64,000 nucleotides of DNA, taken from sequence record MW679410.1. The stretch is one strand, 5' to 3'. The notes under the pieces were generated by a model that worked only from the letters and a program-made list of their open reading frames with translations, searched no databases and was not told the DNA's origin. Below are positions 38-39,338 of this stretch, in pieces. Source of the stretch: Escherichia phage C6. Position 1 is the stretch's first letter, and every line of letters starts with the position of its first letter. A program made the translations under genes and the position numbers.

Positions 38-736
38 TTAGAACGAGTGGCTTGAGCCTGCTTCCATAGCCAATACATAAGAAGCTTGTGAACCTTCAAA
101 CTTGGCTGCGAAACGAGCATCTTGACCTTCACCACGAGCCCATAGCAATACATGGTAATCGGCTGGCATCATTTTCATATTGGTTTTGTTGATAATGAAT
201 TTGAATTCAGGGCCATCATGGTCTGCAACCACTAAGGAATACAATGGACGCGCCAGGTCCTTATCATCAACTTGTTTGTAACCATTGATTACAATTTTAC
301 CATTGTCTACAGTGATTGCAAATGTATCAATACTCAGTCCAGAGGACACACGCATCAACTGTTGGTAATCTTCAGCTTTAAGGTCAAAAATAACTTCAGC
401 CACTGGGAACGGAATAGCTTTGCTTGGGAATGCAATTGTGCTTGGGTCGGCAATAGGCCACTTAATAGTTGAACGTTGGTCTTTAATAATTAAAGTGGTT
501 TGGTCTTCACTTACCGAAACTTCAGCACTATCGGATACCAATGACAGAATACTTAAGAAGCCGTTCAAATCATAAATTGCGGCTTCGATATCAAAGGTGT
601 CATTTACAGTAGCTTCACCATAACTTGCACCCGTTACTGAACGAGTTAGAATAGTGTTACCAGGTTTAAGCATGATACCTGGGTTAATACCGGAGAAGTT
701 TTTCAGAATGTTCAGAGTTTCTTTAGAGAATTTCAT
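38..736 (-). CDS. 45: DNA polymerase sliding clamp gp45
   Basis: 232 aa; N-terminus and length match recalled T4 gp45 (MK.SK.T..LKNF..INSGIML); synteny with rpbA/46/47. Confidence 0.95.
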   Translation of the reverse strand: MKFSKETLNILKNFSGINPGIMLKPGNTILTRSVTGASYGEATVNDTFDIEAAIYDLNGFLSILSLVSDSAEVSVSEDQTTLIIKDQRSTIKWPIADPSTIAFPSKAIPFPVAEVIFDLKAEDYQQLMRVSSGLSIDTFAITVDNGKIVINGYKQVDDKDLARPLYSLVVADHDGPEFKFIINKTNMKMMPADYHVLLWARGEGQDARFAAKFEGSQASYVLAMEAGSSHSF

Positions 737-761: not shown

Positions 762-1175
762 TTAAGCAATAACGATCATTTGTTTACGAATGGATTCAGG
801 CAGAGATTCAATATACTCTGGAATCTGGGAAGCAACAATAGCACCAGCTTCAAGCAGTTGTTCGTCAAAATCTACGCAATAATCATCTTCGAGACGTTCA
901 GAACCATCACGGTCGATAACCAGTTTAGCACCTGCGGCCAGTGAATCATTATAGTGGCGACGCATAATTTCTACCCACTTATCGGATACGTCGTTATCAA
1001 TGATACCGTAGAGCATGAACTTAGTTTCTTGTGGAAGAGACTGCAGACGACGTGCAGAGTCGGTATCAATATTCAGTACCCATGATTTACGGATACGGTT
1101 TTGGTTATGTGGGTTGGAATCGGTACGAATGGTTTTAACTTGGATATCTTTAACAGTAATAGCGTTAGCAAACAT
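762..1175 (-). CDS. rpbA: RNA polymerase-binding protein RpbA (by position)
   Basis: Track ORF starts at TTG; trimmed to internal ATG (MFANAITV); lies between 45 and 45.2 as in T4; start uncertain. Confidence 0.5.
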   Translation of the reverse strand: MFANAITVKDIQVKTIRTDSNPHNQNRIRKSWVLNIDTDSARRLQSLPQETKFMLYGIIDNDVSDKWVEIMRRHYNDSLAAGAKLVIDRDGSERLEDDYCVDFDEQLLEAGAIVASQIPEYIESLPESIRKQMIVIA

Positions 1176-1235: not shown

Positions 1236-1427
1236 TTAATCAAAGTATTCATAAACGAACCAGGCAGGGTTCCTGTTCGACATGATTTTAACATACTCTG
1301 ACTTAAAAGCATTTCGGAGATAATCTTCAGTAACAAGATGTTCGTCACCGGAGAAGTTGTTAACTAAAACATACCGCTTTAGTTCAGGAACGGCCAACAA
1401 ATGCTGGCCTGTTATAAAATCACTCAT
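1236..1427 (-). CDS. Hypothetical protein (45.2-like position)
   Basis: 63 aa ATG ORF; 4-nt overlap with gene 46 stop; synteny. Confidence 0.6.
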   Translation of the reverse strand: MSDFITGQHLLAVPELKRYVLVNNFSGDEHLVTEDYLRNAFKSEYVKIMSNRNPAWFVYEYFD

Positions 1428-3106
1428 TCCATCACCGTGAATCGTCCAACTTTCTTCATTTGAAGATGTTGGCCATAAGCTTGTGGGTCATGGTCTCGGT
1501 GAGAGATAATGAACACGTTCGTATCCTCAAGGCTATTCAAGATGGTTGCAATGGTCTTAACGCCTTCAGCGTCAGTAGCACTGTCAAATACCTCATCAAG
1601 AATTAACGTGCTGATATTAACACCTGATACCTTTGAAGCAATATCACGCCATGTAAAAAGTAGTGCGATATCAATACGTGCTTTCTCACCCTGTGAAAAT
1701 GAAGCATAACTAAAGTCTTCACGTCCACGTGATTTAATCGTCTCATTGAACTCTTCGTCCAGTGTAAAGACGTAGTCGGCTTCCATAATCTTCAAATAAG
1801 AATTTATCTGCTTATTAAAGATAGGAATGTATTTCTTAATAATGGAACCTTTAATACCGGTGTCCTTCAACATTTCTGTCAGAATTCCACGATGATATTT
1901 TTCCATTACTAAGGACGATTTGGTAGAGACGATTTTATCAAGCTCTGCTTGAAGCGTGGCAATCTCTTCGGCGTTACTTACGAACTCAGCAGCTGCTTGG
2001 TCGATTAATACTTTAACTTTTTTAGCTTTCTCTACAGCAGTAATGGCTTGTTGCTTATGAGTAGCTATCTGAGATTTAATAGCCAGCGCTTTATTACGTT
2101 GTTCGGTTACTTGGTCCTTAATGAGCTTGAGTTCTTGGTACTGCTCATTAATCTTATCCAAAGATTTTTGAAGCTCAAAGTTCTTATCCTTAATTTTAGT
2201 AAGGATATTTCCATGCTCTTCCAATCCTTGCATACATGTAGGACAACTACCGCCGGTTTCGTATAATTTCACGACCTTAGTAAAGGTTGCCATATCATTC
2301 TTGATTGCAAATCCTTTATTGCTCAGGTCACTCATAGAGTCGCTAGGGTCATCATCGACGATGACATTGAGTAATTCATCAGTCAGTTTTTCTATGTTGC
2401 CCTTCGCAGTCCTGGCTTCTTTAACGAGCTCATCGTACATTGTTTGTAGACGTGCTGCATTTTCACCAGATAATTTACGCTGACGTTCTTCATTGTCATT
2501 ATAAATTTTAATTTGCTGGGTAATAGAATCCTGTTTAACGTCGATTACTTGGATTTGGCTATTGGTCTCACGAATCAAAGATTTGTTCAACTTGTCCATA
2601 TCCGCTAATACAGAAACCTCTAAGAGGTCTTCCACAAGCTTTCGGCGCGCAGGGGTCGACAAACCCATGAAAGGGGTATACCCTGCTGTACCAAGTACGA
2701 CAATCTGTTTGAAACTGGTATATGACATTCCGATAAGCTGTTCAAATTCTGCTTGGAAGTCTTTACTGCTGGCAGATTCATCAAGACGTTCACCGCCACA
2801 AGAGATTTCAAAAATATTGGGTTTTTGCCCGCGCTTGATATAGTATTCTTTGCCATCATATTCCATCCACAGTTCGACCAAAAGGTCTTTCTTATTACTT
2901 GAGTTAATCAACTGCCCTTTCTTAACATCACGAAAAGGCTTACCGAACAGAGCAAATGTAACGGCTTCAAGGAACGTAGATTTCCCAGCGCCATTTTTAC
3001 CGGTGACTAAGGTCTTTTGGACCTTATCAAGTTGGATTGTAATAGATTGCTGACCTACCGACATAATATTTTTATACGTTACTTTCTTTAACTTAAACGT
3101 TTTCAT
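1424..3106 (-). CDS. 46: Recombination endonuclease subunit gp46 (Rad50/SbcC-like ATPase)
   Basis: 560 aa, same length as T4 gp46; Walker A GKNGAGKST; long coiled-coil middle; C-terminal LILDEVFD signature. Confidence 0.95.
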   Translation of the reverse strand: MKTFKLKKVTYKNIMSVGQQSITIQLDKVQKTLVTGKNGAGKSTFLEAVTFALFGKPFRDVKKGQLINSSNKKDLLVELWMEYDGKEYYIKRGQKPNIFEISCGGERLDESASSKDFQAEFEQLIGMSYTSFKQIVVLGTAGYTPFMGLSTPARRKLVEDLLEVSVLADMDKLNKSLIRETNSQIQVIDVKQDSITQQIKIYNDNEERQRKLSGENAARLQTMYDELVKEARTAKGNIEKLTDELLNVIVDDDPSDSMSDLSNKGFAIKNDMATFTKVVKLYETGGSCPTCMQGLEEHGNILTKIKDKNFELQKSLDKINEQYQELKLIKDQVTEQRNKALAIKSQIATHKQQAITAVEKAKKVKVLIDQAAAEFVSNAEEIATLQAELDKIVSTKSSLVMEKYHRGILTEMLKDTGIKGSIIKKYIPIFNKQINSYLKIMEADYVFTLDEEFNETIKSRGREDFSYASFSQGEKARIDIALLFTWRDIASKVSGVNISTLILDEVFDSATDAEGVKTIATILNSLEDTNVFIISHRDHDPQAYGQHLQMKKVGRFTVME

Positions 3107-3327
3107 GTATTGTTCTCACGAATTGTTTGTTCAGCATATTCTAGCATTTCTTCGGAAGAAGCAAACACGTCGTCAAGTTCCATGGCCCATGAAACACCTT
3201 CAGAATATTCAGAAGTGACATACATAGTTCCGGTATACCAAGAACCATCCACGTCCCATTCTACATTACCGAACCAGCCATCGCCAATATGAAAATCATG
3301 TTTATACATTTTCATCATTATAAGCAT
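3103..3327 (-). CDS. Hypothetical protein (46.1-like)
   Basis: 74 aa; ATG start; 4-nt overlap with neighbours. Confidence 0.5.
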   Translation of the reverse strand: MLIMMKMYKHDFHIGDGWFGNVEWDVDGSWYTGTMYVTSEYSEGVSWAMELDDVFASSEEMLEYAEQTIRENNT

Positions 3328-3565
3328 CCTTGATGCATGATTCAGCCATATGAATTAATGTTTCTGGAGTATCATCTACCATTACATTAAAGCTAAATTC
3401 CACAGCCCAATCAGTAGCAACATAAACTTTAATAAGCTCGTTGGTATCGCGAGTGCTCACGGCTTCAAACCAGAACTTAATTGTATTAGGTTGTCCGTCG
3501 TCATCAATAACGATACAGTCGTGTTCTAGTTCAAGTCCTGATTTTTTGAATTCATCTAAAGTCAT
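3302..3565 (-). CDS. Hypothetical protein (46.2-like)
   Basis: 87 aa; ATG start; translationally coupled to gene 47. Confidence 0.5.
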   Translation of the reverse strand: MTLDEFKKSGLELEHDCIVIDDDGQPNTIKFWFEAVSTRDTNELIKVYVATDWAVEFSFNVMVDDTPETLIHMAESCIKDAYNDENV

Positions 3566-4584
3566 CGTGTAACCTCATTATAAAGTTGTGCAGCCATAGT
3601 CTTAAGGGCTTTAACATCGTCTTCAGTGTGGCCATCAGGAAGGGCATCGATATAATCATACATCATATCCAAGAGGGACTTAACTTCATCTTCCTCTTCA
3701 GAATCATCGATATCAACACTGTTATCTACCTTAGACACGATACGTAAAGAATGGACCACCTTTTCAAGCTCTGATTCGAACTTAGTAAGACCGTCATCAA
3801 TTTTATCGACTATAACACGAACTGCGATATTTGTAAAATCTTTGTAATCGATAGTCGCGTTAGGATAATGAATCTTACGGTGCCAACAGGTTTCATTAAT
3901 GATGAAATCCATCTTATGAGTTTCTGTGTCGAAAATCCAGAATCCGCGAGGGTCGTTCTCGTCACCAGCAGTCAGGGTCCATGGCGTACCAATATACTTA
4001 ACGTTTGCTGCATCAGAAATAGTATGGAAGTGTCCAGACCATACCTGCTTATACTTCTTAAGGAAATCAGGTTCTAAACCATGAGATTTCATTCCTTTAT
4101 AGAAATAGAAACCATTTAATTCCCAGTGACCTATACAGAAATCTGCTGTGGTATTTTTGATATGCTCCATGATATCGGTAGTGTTTTCTTCACACATCCA
4201 TGGAATCAAATCAATTTCGGTGCCATCAAAATTAACCGTAGTAGGTTTCTCAATAACCTTGATATGGTCATATTTACCCAGAACTTCTGAAGCTGCGTTC
4301 GGAGTTAGGGTATTTTTGTAGTGCATATCATGGTTGCCAACGATAGTATACATGGTAATGCCGTTGGCTTTAAGCAAATCGGAGATTTCGCGAGCGAATT
4401 CCATGCACTTGTGGGTAATTGCTTTACGAACGTCAAAGATATCACCGTACTGAATCCAGACAGTAATGCCATTTGCTTTAGAATAATTAATAGCGTCTTG
4501 GATACCTTGACGTTGGATATTTTGTACCCATACATCATCGGCCTTAACTCCAAGGTGCCAGTCACCTGTGTTTAATATTTTCAT
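3562..4584 (-). CDS. 47: Recombination endonuclease subunit gp47 (Mre11/SbcD-like nuclease)
   Basis: Start trimmed to MKILNTGDWHLG, matching the recalled T4 gp47 N-terminus; phosphoesterase motifs GDWHLG, GNHD. Confidence 0.95.
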   Translation of the reverse strand: MKILNTGDWHLGVKADDVWVQNIQRQGIQDAINYSKANGITVWIQYGDIFDVRKAITHKCMEFAREISDLLKANGITMYTIVGNHDMHYKNTLTPNAASEVLGKYDHIKVIEKPTTVNFDGTEIDLIPWMCEENTTDIMEHIKNTTADFCIGHWELNGFYFYKGMKSHGLEPDFLKKYKQVWSGHFHTISDAANVKYIGTPWTLTAGDENDPRGFWIFDTETHKMDFIINETCWHRKIHYPNATIDYKDFTNIAVRVIVDKIDDGLTKFESELEKVVHSLRIVSKVDNSVDIDDSEEEDEVKSLLDMMYDYIDALPDGHTEDDVKALKTMAAQLYNEVTR

Positions 4585-36969: not shown

Positions 36970-37233
36970 TTATTTCATATTATTGAAATAATCTTCCGCA
37001 TCAAAATCGTTATCATGATAAACTTTGGTAGACGATTTGGCGTAACCTTCAGCTGAGAACATATTAATCACAACTTTAATTGTATACCACTGTCCATCTT
37101 CATTACCCATTACTGCATAGGTTTCATACACTGGGTGTTCAGGACCGATAACCTTAATATCGTTAACTGTGGCACCAAATTCTTCCGGAACGCATTTCAT
37201 AAAGAAATTAAACAATTCACCATAATTATCCAT
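36970..37233 (-). CDS. Hypothetical protein (start trimmed to MDNYGELF)
   Basis: Track start is GTG; internal ATG with SD AAGGAGA. Confidence 0.5.
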   Translation of the reverse strand: MDNYGELFNFFMKCVPEEFGATVNDIKVIGPEHPVYETYAVMGNEDGQWYTIKVVINMFSAEGYAKSSTKVYHDNDFDAEDYFNNMK

Positions 37234-37268
37234 TTTACTCTCCTTCACTCTGTTGTTTTGATAGGTCT

Positions 37269-37356: not shown

Positions 37357-37974
37357 TTATTTACGGGTCTTTTCGAACTGAGCGGCGTCACCAGCAAGGC
37401 GGCGTGCTTGACGAAGTTTGTTGTCGATTTCTTCGTGCATAGGCTGGGTATACTTAAGGCCTTCAACCGTCAGATAGAGACGATAAAGGTCTGGGGTATC
37501 CAGGTTGTTAATGTGCTGTCCGTTACGAAGAGCATTGAACTCTCGAACGAGTTGTTTAGTTTCAGATTCGATTTCCGAAACCAAAGAAGCCAGTTGATTA
37601 TATTTTTTAACTATAGTGCTGGTGTCAAACTTGATTTTAGGTTTAGGAGCTTCTTTTACCGGTTCGGCTTTAGGCGTTGGTTTCGGCGCTGCAACTTTGG
37701 TCTGGGCCACAGGTTTAGCAACAGGAGCTTTAGCTGGTTTAGCAGGCTTAGTAGCGCCGCCAGCTACGATATCTTTAAAAGCTTTGGAAGCTTTGTAATA
37801 TTCTTTCTGGTTACTAGTATCAAAACCATACATATCATAAACGTTTTTAAAGAACTCAGTACTAGTTTTAGCCCCAGAAATTTTATCATAAGCGGCTTGC
37901 CACATATCTTTAGTCATGCGCACGCCGGCTTCAGTCAGAATGTTTTCGTTCAAAAATTCATTGTAAGTTTTCAT
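37357..37974 (-). CDS. CTS-bearing internal-protein-like protein with Pro/Ala/Lys-rich linker
   Basis: 205 aa; N-terminus MKTYNEFLNEN; low-complexity KPAKPAKAPVAKPVAQTKVAAPKPTPKAEPVKEAPKPK segment. Confidence 0.6.
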   Translation of the reverse strand: MKTYNEFLNENILTEAGVRMTKDMWQAAYDKISGAKTSTEFFKNVYDMYGFDTSNQKEYYKASKAFKDIVAGGATKPAKPAKAPVAKPVAQTKVAAPKPTPKAEPVKEAPKPKIKFDTSTIVKKYNQLASLVSEIESETKQLVREFNALRNGQHINNLDTPDLYRLYLTVEGLKYTQPMHEEIDNKLRQARRLAGDAAQFEKTRK

Positions 37975-38007
37975 TATTGTTTCCTGTGTTAATTAACTTA
38001 TCTATTT

Positions 38008-38040
38008 ATACAAAAAAGGCCCAACCTTTCGGAAGGGCCT
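38008..38040 (-). terminator. Rho-independent terminator ending the tRNA transcript
   Basis: Minus strand AAAGGCCC-loop-GGGCCTTTTTTG. Confidence 0.55.
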
Positions 38041-38217
38041 TTAACCTAGGGTAACCTTGTCGGGGTTCCACCTGCTAGGCAAGTGTTCAAAAATAAGGTG
38101 CGCCGTTTCAGCTGTGAGATAAGGGACTTTAAGAGGAACTCATGTACGCCTTAAAGTCGGGTCTTATTCAGGGAACTTCAGTCCGACGACTTACCGGTAG
38201 CGACCCGGTTTCTTGTT
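38041..38217 (-). ncRNA. Candidate structured small RNA downstream of tRNA-Arg
   Basis: About 175 nt without a protein ORF; several stem-loops (e.g. GACTTTAAG...CTTAAAGTC); no tRNA cloverleaf found. Confidence 0.25.
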
Positions 38218-38293
38218 TGGCCGAGACAGTAGGGATCGAACCTACGACCCAGGACTTAGAAGGTCCTTGCTCTTCCTTCTGAGCTATGCCTCG
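38218..38293 (-). tRNA. tRNA-Arg (anticodon UCU)
   Basis: Manual cloverleaf: 7-bp acceptor, GGTTCGATCC T-arm, anticodon loop CTTCTAA, encoded CCA. Confidence 0.75.
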
Positions 38294-38297
38294 TATT

Positions 38298-38372
38298 TGG
38301 CGGACATGCATGGATTCGAACCATGGACCAATTGATTAACAGTCAACTGCTCTGCCACTGAGCTACACATCC
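38298..38372 (-). tRNA. tRNA-Asn (anticodon GUU), putative
   Basis: Manual cloverleaf: T-loop TTCGAAT, anticodon loop CTGTTAA, encoded CCA; acceptor has two G-U pairs. Confidence 0.55.
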
Positions 38373-38376
38373 AAAT

Positions 38377-38450
38377 TGGTGGCCCTGGGTGGAATCGAAC
38401 CACCATCCAGCGATTATGAGTCGCTCGCTTGACCGTCCAGCTACAGGGCC
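38377..38450 (-). tRNA. tRNA-Ile/Met (anticodon CAU)
   Basis: Manual cloverleaf: perfect 7-bp acceptor, T-loop TTCGATT, anticodon loop CTCATAA, encoded CCA; T4 tRNA-Ile also uses CAU. Confidence 0.75.
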
Positions 38451-38455
38451 TTAAT

Positions 38456-38728
38456 TTAAATTACAAATCCAGCAGGAGCATTATCATCTTTAGCCATGTG
38501 CTGAATTGTATGATAAGTCATTTCTTCAGGAGCAACCAGATAAGCCGCAGCGTTAACTAGTGGAATTATTTTTGGTTTAGCGAATGTGCTATCGGCAATT
38601 GTCATAAAGGGCTCGCCGTCGGTCTCAACTTCGCCAAATTGACATTCATATGAAATAGAACAACGTTTGGTAGTTGTTGTCTTGGTTTCCGGGTCATAAA
38701 AAGCTAATTTTAATACTAACATAAACAC
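38456..38728 (-). CDS. Hypothetical protein
   Basis: 90 aa. Confidence 0.45.
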   Translation of the reverse strand: MFMLVLKLAFYDPETKTTTTKRCSISYECQFGEVETDGEPFMTIADSTFAKPKIIPLVNAAAYLVAPEEMTYHTIQHMAKDDNAPAGFVI

Positions 38729-38852
38729 CTCAAATAAAAATTAAGTAAAGTAAGTTTGATTAATAGACCTTGTCTATTATGAAAGGTTCTTTGAGGGAAG
38801 AACCTTTGGTAATAGAGGGTATTAATGATAGAGTAATAATATCACATAATTC

Positions 38853-39338
38853 TTAAAGCATATCAAGTGCTTTAACACTAGGTATTTGGATTTCTTCTTC
38901 AACGATGTACAGCTTAACATAAGAAATTACGCGCATGAAATCGCCGTCATATTCACAAGCCATACCAAGGAGCTCAGTAAGGGCTTCATTCAAGTAGTAT
39001 GCTTCTTCATCGTCATTCAACAAGGCTTCTAAGTCTTGAATACCTAGGACCTTATCCAAAAATTCAGGAGTCAACTGACCGGATTTTACACCAGATTCAA
39101 TGTGAGCAATAACCAAATGCTTAACTACGTCCCAGTCTTCGTTACCACATTTATTGTGGTTGTTGCAATGCGAACCATGGAAAAGTTCTAAGATGTATTT
39201 GTACTGTTGGATTTCCTGTTCTTCTACACCAAATACAGTCTGGGTTTTATAGTTATCACCATCATTTTCCCAAGTTTCGATTTCAAGAACATAACCTTTA
39301 GGAATAACTTGTCCAAATTTAATATTCATTGTGGCCAC
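38853..39338 (-). CDS. Hypothetical acidic protein
   Basis: 161 aa ATG ORF. Confidence 0.55.
   Translation of the reverse strand: MATMNIKFGQVIPKGYVLEIETWENDGDNYKTQTVFGVEEQEIQQYKYILELFHGSHCNNHNKCGNEDWDVVKHLVIAHIESGVKSGQLTPEFLDKVLGIQDLEALLNDDEEAYYLNEALTELLGMACEYDGDFMRVISYVKLYIVEEEIQIPSVKALDML

Follow-up and report, generated by a model that had tools for sequence, protein, structure and literature searches.

The three tRNA genes of the window (the whole 64,000-nucleotide stretch of phage DNA analysed here) and the roughly 175 nt that follow them very probably make up the distal part of a tRNA operon of the T4 type, in a JS98-like phage of the genus Dhakavirus. We regard the first 120 nt of that following stretch, positions 38097-38216, as almost certainly a direct orthologue of T4 rnaD. 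A single minus-strand transcript would carry three tRNAs for codons heavily used by the AT-rich phage (AUA, AAY and AGA), then the rnaD orthologue, a conserved trailer and an intrinsic terminator, with rnaC absent (Table 1). The new element is the unannotated rnaD orthologue; as a kind of element it is ordinary and already known.

Table 1. Positions in the window of the tRNA genes, the rnaD orthologue with its parts, and the operon trailer
Feature	Position	Strand	Basis
tRNA, anticodon CAU	38377-38450	minus	ARAGORN; Rfam RF00005, 62.6 bits; encoded CCA; most likely tRNA-Ile2, labelled tRNA-Met by ARAGORN and in the JS98 record
tRNA-Asn (GUU)	38298-38372	minus	ARAGORN; Rfam RF00005, 70.1 bits; encoded CCA
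tRNA-Arg (UCU, reads AGA)	38218-38293	minus	ARAGORN; Rfam RF00005, 62.4 bits; encoded CCA
Almost certain rnaD orthologue (T4 species 2 small stable RNA), about 120 nt	38097-38216	minus	Alignment with T4 and JS98; covariance model, 130 bits
rnaD P1: 5-bp hairpin ACCGG/CCGGU with invariant 7-nt loop GUCGCUA	38193-38209	minus	Consensus fold; closing pair covaries
rnaD P2 5' strand (GUCGUCG, 38190-38184) and 5' side of the internal loop (GACUGA, 38183-38178)	38178-38190	minus	Invariant in the alignment, nearly so in BLAST-chosen relatives
rnaD apical hairpin P4, type A (Dhakavirus type)	38123-38163	minus	Unrelated in sequence to types B (T4) and C
rnaD 3' core: P2b 3' strand (AGCU, 38113-38110), loop (GAAA, 38109-38106) and P2 3' strand (CGGCGCAC, 38105-38098)	38098-38113	minus	Consensus fold
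U-rich linker UUAUUUUUGA, which includes an 8-nt insertion that JS98 and locus L010 lack	38087-38096	minus	Alignments
34-nt trailer ACACUUGCCUAGCAGGUGGAACCCCGACAAGGUU with two predicted hairpins	38053-38086	minus	Nearly invariant in relatives
Small hairpin ACC-CUA-GGU	38044-38052	minus	Sequence and RNAalifold
Intrinsic terminator GGCCCUUCC-GAAA-GGUUGGGCC (38039-38018), then U6 (38017-38012)	38012-38039	minus	GGCCC..GAAA..GGGCC hairpin

The three-tRNA cluster

ARAGORN called three tRNA genes and no others in the 64-kb window, each of them on the minus strand, and all three cloverleaves scored above the gathering score of 29 of the Rfam tRNA family RF00005. The two programs agree with the sequence-only reading, in which three minus-strand tRNAs with anticodons CAU, GUU and UCU and encoded CCA ends had been folded by hand; the GUU tRNA was accepted by ARAGORN and reached 70.1 bits with Rfam. 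That reading had also stated eight tRNAs and no tRNA-Asn for T4, which the T4 map bears out (Gln, Leu, Gly, Pro, Ser, Thr, Ile and Arg), as do published tRNA gene counts of 8 for T4 and 3 each for JS98 and JS10 (PMC2993671, Table 2). Its conclusion that the complement differs from that of T4 therefore stands, but the complement is not new and is already known from JS98-type phages. The JS98 record holds the same three tRNAs, annotated Met, Asn and Arg, and the set Met(CAU), Asn and Arg of JS98/JS10-type Dhakavirus comprises the same genes in the same order as in the window. A tRNA-Asn(GTT) adjoining a tRNA-Arg(TCT) is common in other T-even relatives as well, for example Shigella phage Sf25.

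Over positions 37500-39000 the window shares 94.6% identity with Escherichia phage JS98, a member of Dhakavirus in the subfamily Tevenvirinae; JS98 carries orf136 downstream and the window does not. Within the cluster, the CAU tRNA matches its JS98 counterpart at 74 of 74 positions and the tRNA-Asn at 73 of 75 (74 of 75 against the tRNA-Asn of Sf25). The tRNA-Arg is identical to that of JS98 at 68 of 76 positions, with the differences clustered in the anticodon stem, and to that of T4 at 51 of 68. In the long open reading frames of the window, AUA is used 9.5 times, AGA 7.1 times and AAU plus AAC 57 times per 1,000 codons, the values for AUA and AGA being two to three times those of E. coli. 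This codon use is consistent with phage tRNAs supplementing the decoding of codons that are rare in E. coli.

For the CAU tRNA the most likely identity is tRNA-Ile2 of the lysidine type, a reader of AUA, and not tRNA-Met. We aligned it with E. coli ileY, metT and metZ and with T4 tRNA-Ile, and found its first six acceptor pairs (GGCCCU/AGGGCC) to be those of ileY tRNA-Ile(CAU) and its anticodon stem-loop (GCGAC-UCAUAA-UCGC) to be wholly identical to that of ileY, whereas it was unlike both the elongator metT and the initiator metZ. The shared acceptor pairs include C4-G69 and C5-G68, which are determinants of TilS, the enzyme that makes the k2C-A-U anticodon of E. coli tRNA-Ile2 (ileX/ileY). 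The best E. coli matches of the CAU tRNA are annotated tRNA-Ile, as is the CAU tRNA of T4 itself. Because of the ileY-like acceptor and anticodon stems and the tRNA-Ile annotations of its matches, we read it as a lysidine-dependent AUA decoder. Its D arm and T arm differ from those of E. coli tRNA-Ile2, and both the lysidine modification and charging by IleRS are predictions here.

The rnaD orthologue and its predicted fold

The sequence-only reading had likened the whole 175-nt stretch to the T4 species 1 and species 2 RNAs. For the first 120 nt the relation is closer than a likeness, as they are almost certainly orthologous to rnaD (species 2), but species 1 is missing: in an alignment with T4, rnaC was absent from both the window and JS98. 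The last 55 nt or so are a separately conserved trailer and not part of rnaD.

In T4, rnaD (NC_000866, 71053-71171; positions 3054-3172 of the T4 locus, where it is described as 'small, stable RNA; species 2 RNA') lies directly after tRNA-Arg. The window copy begins 2 nt past the tRNA-Arg CCA, as in T4 and JS98. MAFFT alignment of the window and T4 sequences showed the 5' 45 nt or so and the 3' 25 nt or so to be nearly identical, with core blocks that are fully identical and a middle that is unrelated. The two thus share their position 3' of tRNA-Arg(UCU), their strand, a length of about 120 nt and a predicted fold. They differ in the apical hairpin, which is of type B in T4 and of type A in the window, with unrelated sequences, and at the 3' end, where the window copy lacks a following CCA and passes directly into the trailer, whereas T4 rnaD is followed by rnaC. 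An e.8 homologue occupies positions 36970-37248, and rnaD lies upstream of the e.8-side genes on the strand of tRNA-Arg(UCU), in agreement with the T4 and JS98 maps. A covariance model of the rnaD family scored the window copy at 130 bits and T4 at 127 bits; as the model was built with both sequences included, the pairwise alignment is the independent evidence. Scanning the window with this model revealed no second copy. The JS98 record has no feature annotated over the homologous stretch.

In an Rfam scan the three tRNAs were matched, but no family was found for the 175 nt, with only sub-threshold matches of sRNA and terminator models on the trailer. The rnaD segment itself (38097-38216) had no family match in Rfam 15, either at gathering scores or at E values up to 10, and T4 rnaC and rnaD likewise gave only sub-threshold, chance-level matches and no family.

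To describe the family we used a main set of 28 loci with 24 distinct sequences, collected by pattern scans of IMG/VR and metagenomes and supplemented with T4, JS98 and the window, together with six relatives from Mosigvirus, Tequatrovirus and Dhakavirus that were chosen by blastn independently of the patterns and agree with the main set. Across the 29 distinct relatives the rnaD core, made up of P1, the closing stem P2 and a 6x4 internal loop, is almost invariant and the apical hairpin occurs in three unrelated sequence types, with the apparent invariance inflated by the gathering of 22 of the 28 main-set loci through exact patterns inside the core, a bias that the six BLAST sequences remove only partly. 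The consensus fold comprises, in order, P1, an unpaired AA junction, P2 (5-7 bp), a 6x4 internal loop, P2b (four base pairs), a CCC bulge, P3a with P3, and P4. From P2 to P4 this is one long, irregular hairpin, and its purine-rich internal loop is invariant, with GACUGA opposite GAAA.

Five of the 22 consensus pairs covary, and 98.6% of cells are paired, a value reached in none of 500 shuffles; as a control, sliding the partner by 1-3 columns reduced pairing to 28-49%. The closing pair of P1 is A-U in 16 sequences, G-C in 5 and G-U in 2, and a P2b pair (columns 42/114) is U-A in 13 and A-U in 8. The two outermost pairs of P2 are broken in two of the six BLAST-chosen relatives. Much of the core is invariant, so that most pairs are uninformative about structure. 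We accept the structure of rnaD because of this comparative evidence and not because of thermodynamic stability, as the minimum free energy was within the range of chance for both the window copy (z = -1.36) and T4 (z = -0.97). The several stem-loops proposed earlier are present; those of rnaD are backed by covariation, but their stability does not exceed chance.

Each of the three P4 types folds as a hairpin of 10-14 bp despite the unrelated sequences. Type A is found in the window, JS98 and IME281, type B in T4 and most other relatives, and type C in four loci (L006, L011, L102 and L106). As one type can occur in more than one genus and one genus can hold more than one type, recombination has exchanged them across genus boundaries. 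The longest unpaired invariant runs in rnaD are only 6-7 nt.

Several motif readings of the internal loop were considered. By inspection, CUGA and GAAA could pair as tandem G.A beside P2b, but the loop is 6x4, whereas a K-turn consists of a 3-nt bulge and tandem sheared G.A pairs against the canonical stem (3+0). On inspection the loop fits neither the K-turn nor the sarcin-ricin consensus, and a K-turn or box C/D-like motif is at most a weak candidate. A hammerhead-like reading of CUGA...GAAA was also discarded, as the topology is wrong and no Rfam ribozyme model matched. The only Rfam match of this kind, by the C/D-box model sR22 on T4, was at chance level (E = 9.1). Paralogy between rnaD and rnaC was not significant, with 82 of 500 shuffles scoring as high, and neither was the similarity of rnaD to a 66-nt 'mini' element of loci L009-L011 (42 of 500 shuffles).

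Distribution of rnaD and the operon trailer

With blastn we found the rnaD region in 743 phage records, nearly all of them phages of Escherichia, Shigella, Yersinia, Salmonella, Citrobacter or Serratia. The family thus appears to be limited to enterobacterial Tevenvirinae, and its core is frozen across four genera of that subfamily. The immediate context varies: rnaD directly follows tRNA-Arg in T4 and the window, follows an inserted protein-coding gene in Mosigvirus and many Tequatrovirus, and lies about 75 nt after a T4-type tRNA-Arg in loci L009-L011. Neither rnaC nor the trailer always accompanies it. Shigella phage Sf25 has a natural internal deletion in rnaD and keeps rnaC.

Searches further afield returned no additional relatives. 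We found no host homologue in 5,426 E. coli genomes by blastn, a search to which short seeds are invisible. A degenerate loop pattern gave four matches in 185,579 bacterial and archaeal genomes, none of them an rnaD relative (best 9 bits, E = 1.1), and we read these as chance. The same pattern in a wider phage search yielded only two extra matches, both attributable to chance, and single-block patterns in IMG/VR gave mostly GC-rich chance matches. A search by the e.8 neighbour protein produced no contigs beyond those already collected.

The trailer is present and nearly invariant in 26 of the 28 loci, whether rnaC or rnaD precedes it. In T4, where rnaC belongs to the same operon tail as rnaD, it is located after rnaC, so that the trailer after T4 rnaC is the trailer after the window's rnaD; rnaC itself differs from rnaD in having a tRNA-like acceptor/T-arm module. 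RNAalifold predicted the two trailer hairpins without covariation, whereas one terminator pair covaries (C-G in 9 sequences, G-C in 3). Trailer and terminator together gave a modest z-score of -2.29. The terminator at 38039-38012 escaped a simple terminator scan because of an internal UU/UU mismatch. The U-rich linker at 38087-38096 is likely to be a single-stranded region of endonuclease (RNase E-type) cleavage.

The trailer can be compared with E. coli 3'ETS-leuZ, a tRNA-operon trailer that acts as an sRNA sponge and ends in the operon terminator. This likeness is architectural only, and blastn found no sequence similarity between the two.

Possible roles of rnaD and the trailer

First observed in the 1970s, rnaC and rnaD belong to the longest-known phage RNAs without a known function, and papers of 2022-2025 still call them 'unknown'. 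The literature on the function of rnaD yielded only statements that it is unknown, and T4 RNAC and RNAD are reported as discrete late RNAs (PMC9697503; PMC3014915). We tentatively favour the possibility that rnaD is a processed, stable, trans-acting, protein-binding RNA that is dispensable on laboratory hosts and important on some natural hosts. In such a scheme, endonucleolytic cuts in A/U-rich single-stranded stretches, one past the tRNA-Arg CCA and one in the U-rich linker, would free rnaD, which by extrapolation from T4 would accumulate as a stable RNA of about 120 nt. It might then work in trans by binding protein, as a scaffold or decoy, with the invariant core as recognition surface and the apical hairpin as a structural extension, and its benefit would be non-essential and host-dependent. 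Action in trans is favoured because the core is kept across genomic contexts and because the T4 RNAs were detected as discrete species. Protein binding seems preferable to base pairing because the invariant positions lie mostly in short loops and in helices without sequence drift, and because the unpaired invariant runs are short. The natural internal deletion in Sf25 suggests that rnaD is non-essential. The invariance at the nucleotide level could also come from a constraint at the DNA level or from recent horizontal spread.

A role in cis is doubtful by comparison. Here rnaD would be a 3' trailer that guides processing by RNase E/P and exonucleases, shields tRNA-Arg from 3' decay and terminates the transcript, with species 2 RNA as a long-lived by-product. 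Such a role would suit the 2-nt spacing from the tRNA-Arg CCA in T4, JS98 and the window, the terminator in which the stretch finishes, the dispensability in nature suggested by Sf25 and the roughly 50 years that have passed without a function being found (PMC3014915; PMC9697503). It is harder to reconcile with the many relatives in which a protein gene separates tRNA-Arg from rnaD, or in which no tRNA lies immediately upstream, and in which the core is nevertheless invariant. The core, with its identical blocks, is also far more conserved between T4 and the window than the tRNA-Arg that it would protect, and a T4-like phage adapting to a semi-permissive E. coli strain is reported to have gained a single convergent, adaptive SNP in rnaD (PMC12685909). 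Judging by its coordinates we place this SNP, with some uncertainty, roughly 41 nt before the 3' end and so in the apical hairpin. Still less probable is a base-pairing RNA, in which either the loops of rnaD would serve as seeds or the trailer and terminator (about 38086-38012) would form an Hfq- or ProQ-bound RNA of the 3'ETS type. A near-invariant 34-nt trailer followed by a terminator hairpin and U-tail is the usual architecture of an Hfq-dependent sRNA, an A/U-rich linker precedes it, it is retained after either rnaC or rnaD, and it bears a weak likeness to generic sRNA models (20.7 bits with BjrC68, whose gathering score is 39). On the other side, the Rfam matches are all below threshold, the trailer hairpins show no covariation, the unpaired invariant stretches are short and blastn, which is blind to short seeds, found no homology to E. 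coli sequence.

That the 175 nt might hold a degenerate or tRNA-like molecule, either a pseudo-tRNA or a mimic whose acceptor end could be aminoacylated or extended with CCA, is very improbable and largely refuted. The idea gains some appeal from the 3' end of T4 rnaD (...GCGCACCA), from the acceptor and T-arm module of the neighbouring rnaC (tRNA-Sec model, 17.5 bits, E = 0.66) and from P1, whose 5-bp stem and 7-nt loop resemble an anticodon arm or T arm. Yet P1 stands outside the closing stem, on its 5' side, which is not a cloverleaf topology, and its loop GUCGCUA does not fit the T-loop consensus; conservation does not extend to the 3' CCA, for which the window has CCU and JS98 CAG. We rejected a tRNA-like reading, as ARAGORN made no call over the 175 nt and no model of the Rfam tRNA clan matched at E values up to 10 in 37990-38225. 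Least probable of all, to the point of being negligible, is a small protein encoded by the region, even though many GenBank records place a 'hypothetical protein' under the homologous stretch by automatic annotation. As the sequence-only reading had noted, the stretch between tRNA-Arg and the terminator contains no open reading frame of its own: those of at least 25 aa that touch it either extend into the tRNA genes or are antisense to them. The lengths of rnaD among relatives (117, 118, 120, 121, 122 and 124 nt) differ by amounts that are not multiples of three and would break any frame, its central segment has been swapped for unrelated sequence with RNA pairing retained, and the T4 experiments identified an RNA product.

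A bolder reading is that rnaD is a host-range or anti-defence RNA, with a core (the P1 loop and GACUGA/GAAA) that would capture a host factor, as binding partner or decoy, and an exchangeable apical hairpin that would tune specificity between hosts. A second, lesser possibility is that the trailer and terminator form a separate regulatory RNA of the 3'ETS type. We consider the bolder reading a long shot; if true, it would explain the frozen core, the three apical types, the dispensability in the laboratory and the convergent SNP. The frozen core, the modular apical hairpin in its three types, the independent presence of rnaC and rnaD and the separately conserved trailer offer handles for mutagenesis and pull-downs. 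For annotation the result is minor: the locus gains the rnaD orthologue and a probable relabelling of one tRNA from Met to Ile2, in a tRNA complement of known JS98 type, and the comparative data would support an Rfam family for rnaD.

rnaD, rnaC and a short element of similar layout

The natural internal deletion of rnaD, the T4 species 2 small RNA, in Shigella phage Sf25 leaves rnaC (the T4 species 1 RNA) and the trailer intact beside it, and thus at least one circulating phage can dispense with rnaD. The 3′ part of T4 rnaC (CCGGGUUCGAAUCCCGG) contains a tRNA-like acceptor stem and T arm and scores weakly, at 17.5 bits (E = 0.66), against the tRNA-Sec model, whereas rnaD has nothing resembling these two elements.

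Three rnaD-bearing relatives (L009, L010 and L011) contain an extra element of around 66 nt, flanked by a T4-type tRNA-Arg and rnaD, which repeats the rnaD layout on a smaller scale, with a 5′ hairpin followed by AA and then a closing stem (GCCGUCG...GACUGA...CGGCGC). Its sequence similarity to rnaD was not significant, with 42 of 500 shuffles scoring as high, and our covariance model of the rnaD family did not match the element in any of the three. Near the 3′ end of rnaD, the window differs from JS98 and L010, both otherwise near-identical, by a U-rich insertion that those two lack.

Features of the window and of related loci
Feature	Location	Strand	Remark
Internal rnaD deletion, AAGAAACCGGGTCG / CACAGCAGAAACGGCGCACC	Sf25 (L115) 1320-1350		natural
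rnaC	T4 (L001) 2909-3002	-	
Extra element, ~66 nt	L009 ~1041-1106	-	
Extra element, ~66 nt	L010 ~325-390	+	
Extra element, ~66 nt	L011 ~248-313	+	
U-rich 8-nt insertion, CUUAUUUU	window 38089-38096	-	between rnaD 3′ end and trailer
Putative middle promoter, TGCTTTA + 12 nt + TATTAT	window 38836-38860	-	motif likeness
T4 late-promoter motif, TATAAATA	window 38003-38010	-	directly past terminator U-tract

Promoter-like motifs around the operon

Upstream of an ORF at 38728-38456 lies a site resembling a T4 middle (MotA-dependent) promoter; a sigma-70 scan also flagged an overlapping site. The promoter-like site could drive a unit comprising the ORF, the tRNAs and rnaD. At the other end, the late-promoter motif precedes the ATG at 37974 by around 28 nt, and most related loci likewise have it after their terminator; across the whole window the motif is about as frequent as chance predicts (8 occurrences against 7.6 expected).

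Flanking tRNAs and the downstream gene

Of the 76 positions of the window's tRNA-Arg (38218-38293), 8 differ from the tRNA-Arg of the Dhakavirus JS98 (L002 2707-2779), and these changes cluster in the anticodon stem (AAGGACC...GUCCUGG versus AACGGUC...ACCGUAG), whereas the CAU tRNA is identical in the two phages. Past the terminator, comparison of window ~37975-38011 with JS98 3016-3570 revealed an extra JS98 gene, orf136, similar to RB43 ORF080w and absent from the window, in which the first gene after the terminator is an orf135 homologue (37974-37357).

In E. coli, the phage CAU tRNA has its closest match in strain 504838 (L109 301-611), within a cluster of four tRNAs (Ile, Arg, Thr and Gly) directly preceded by a DNA-methyltransferase gene; this cluster looks prophage-borne rather than core chromosomal.
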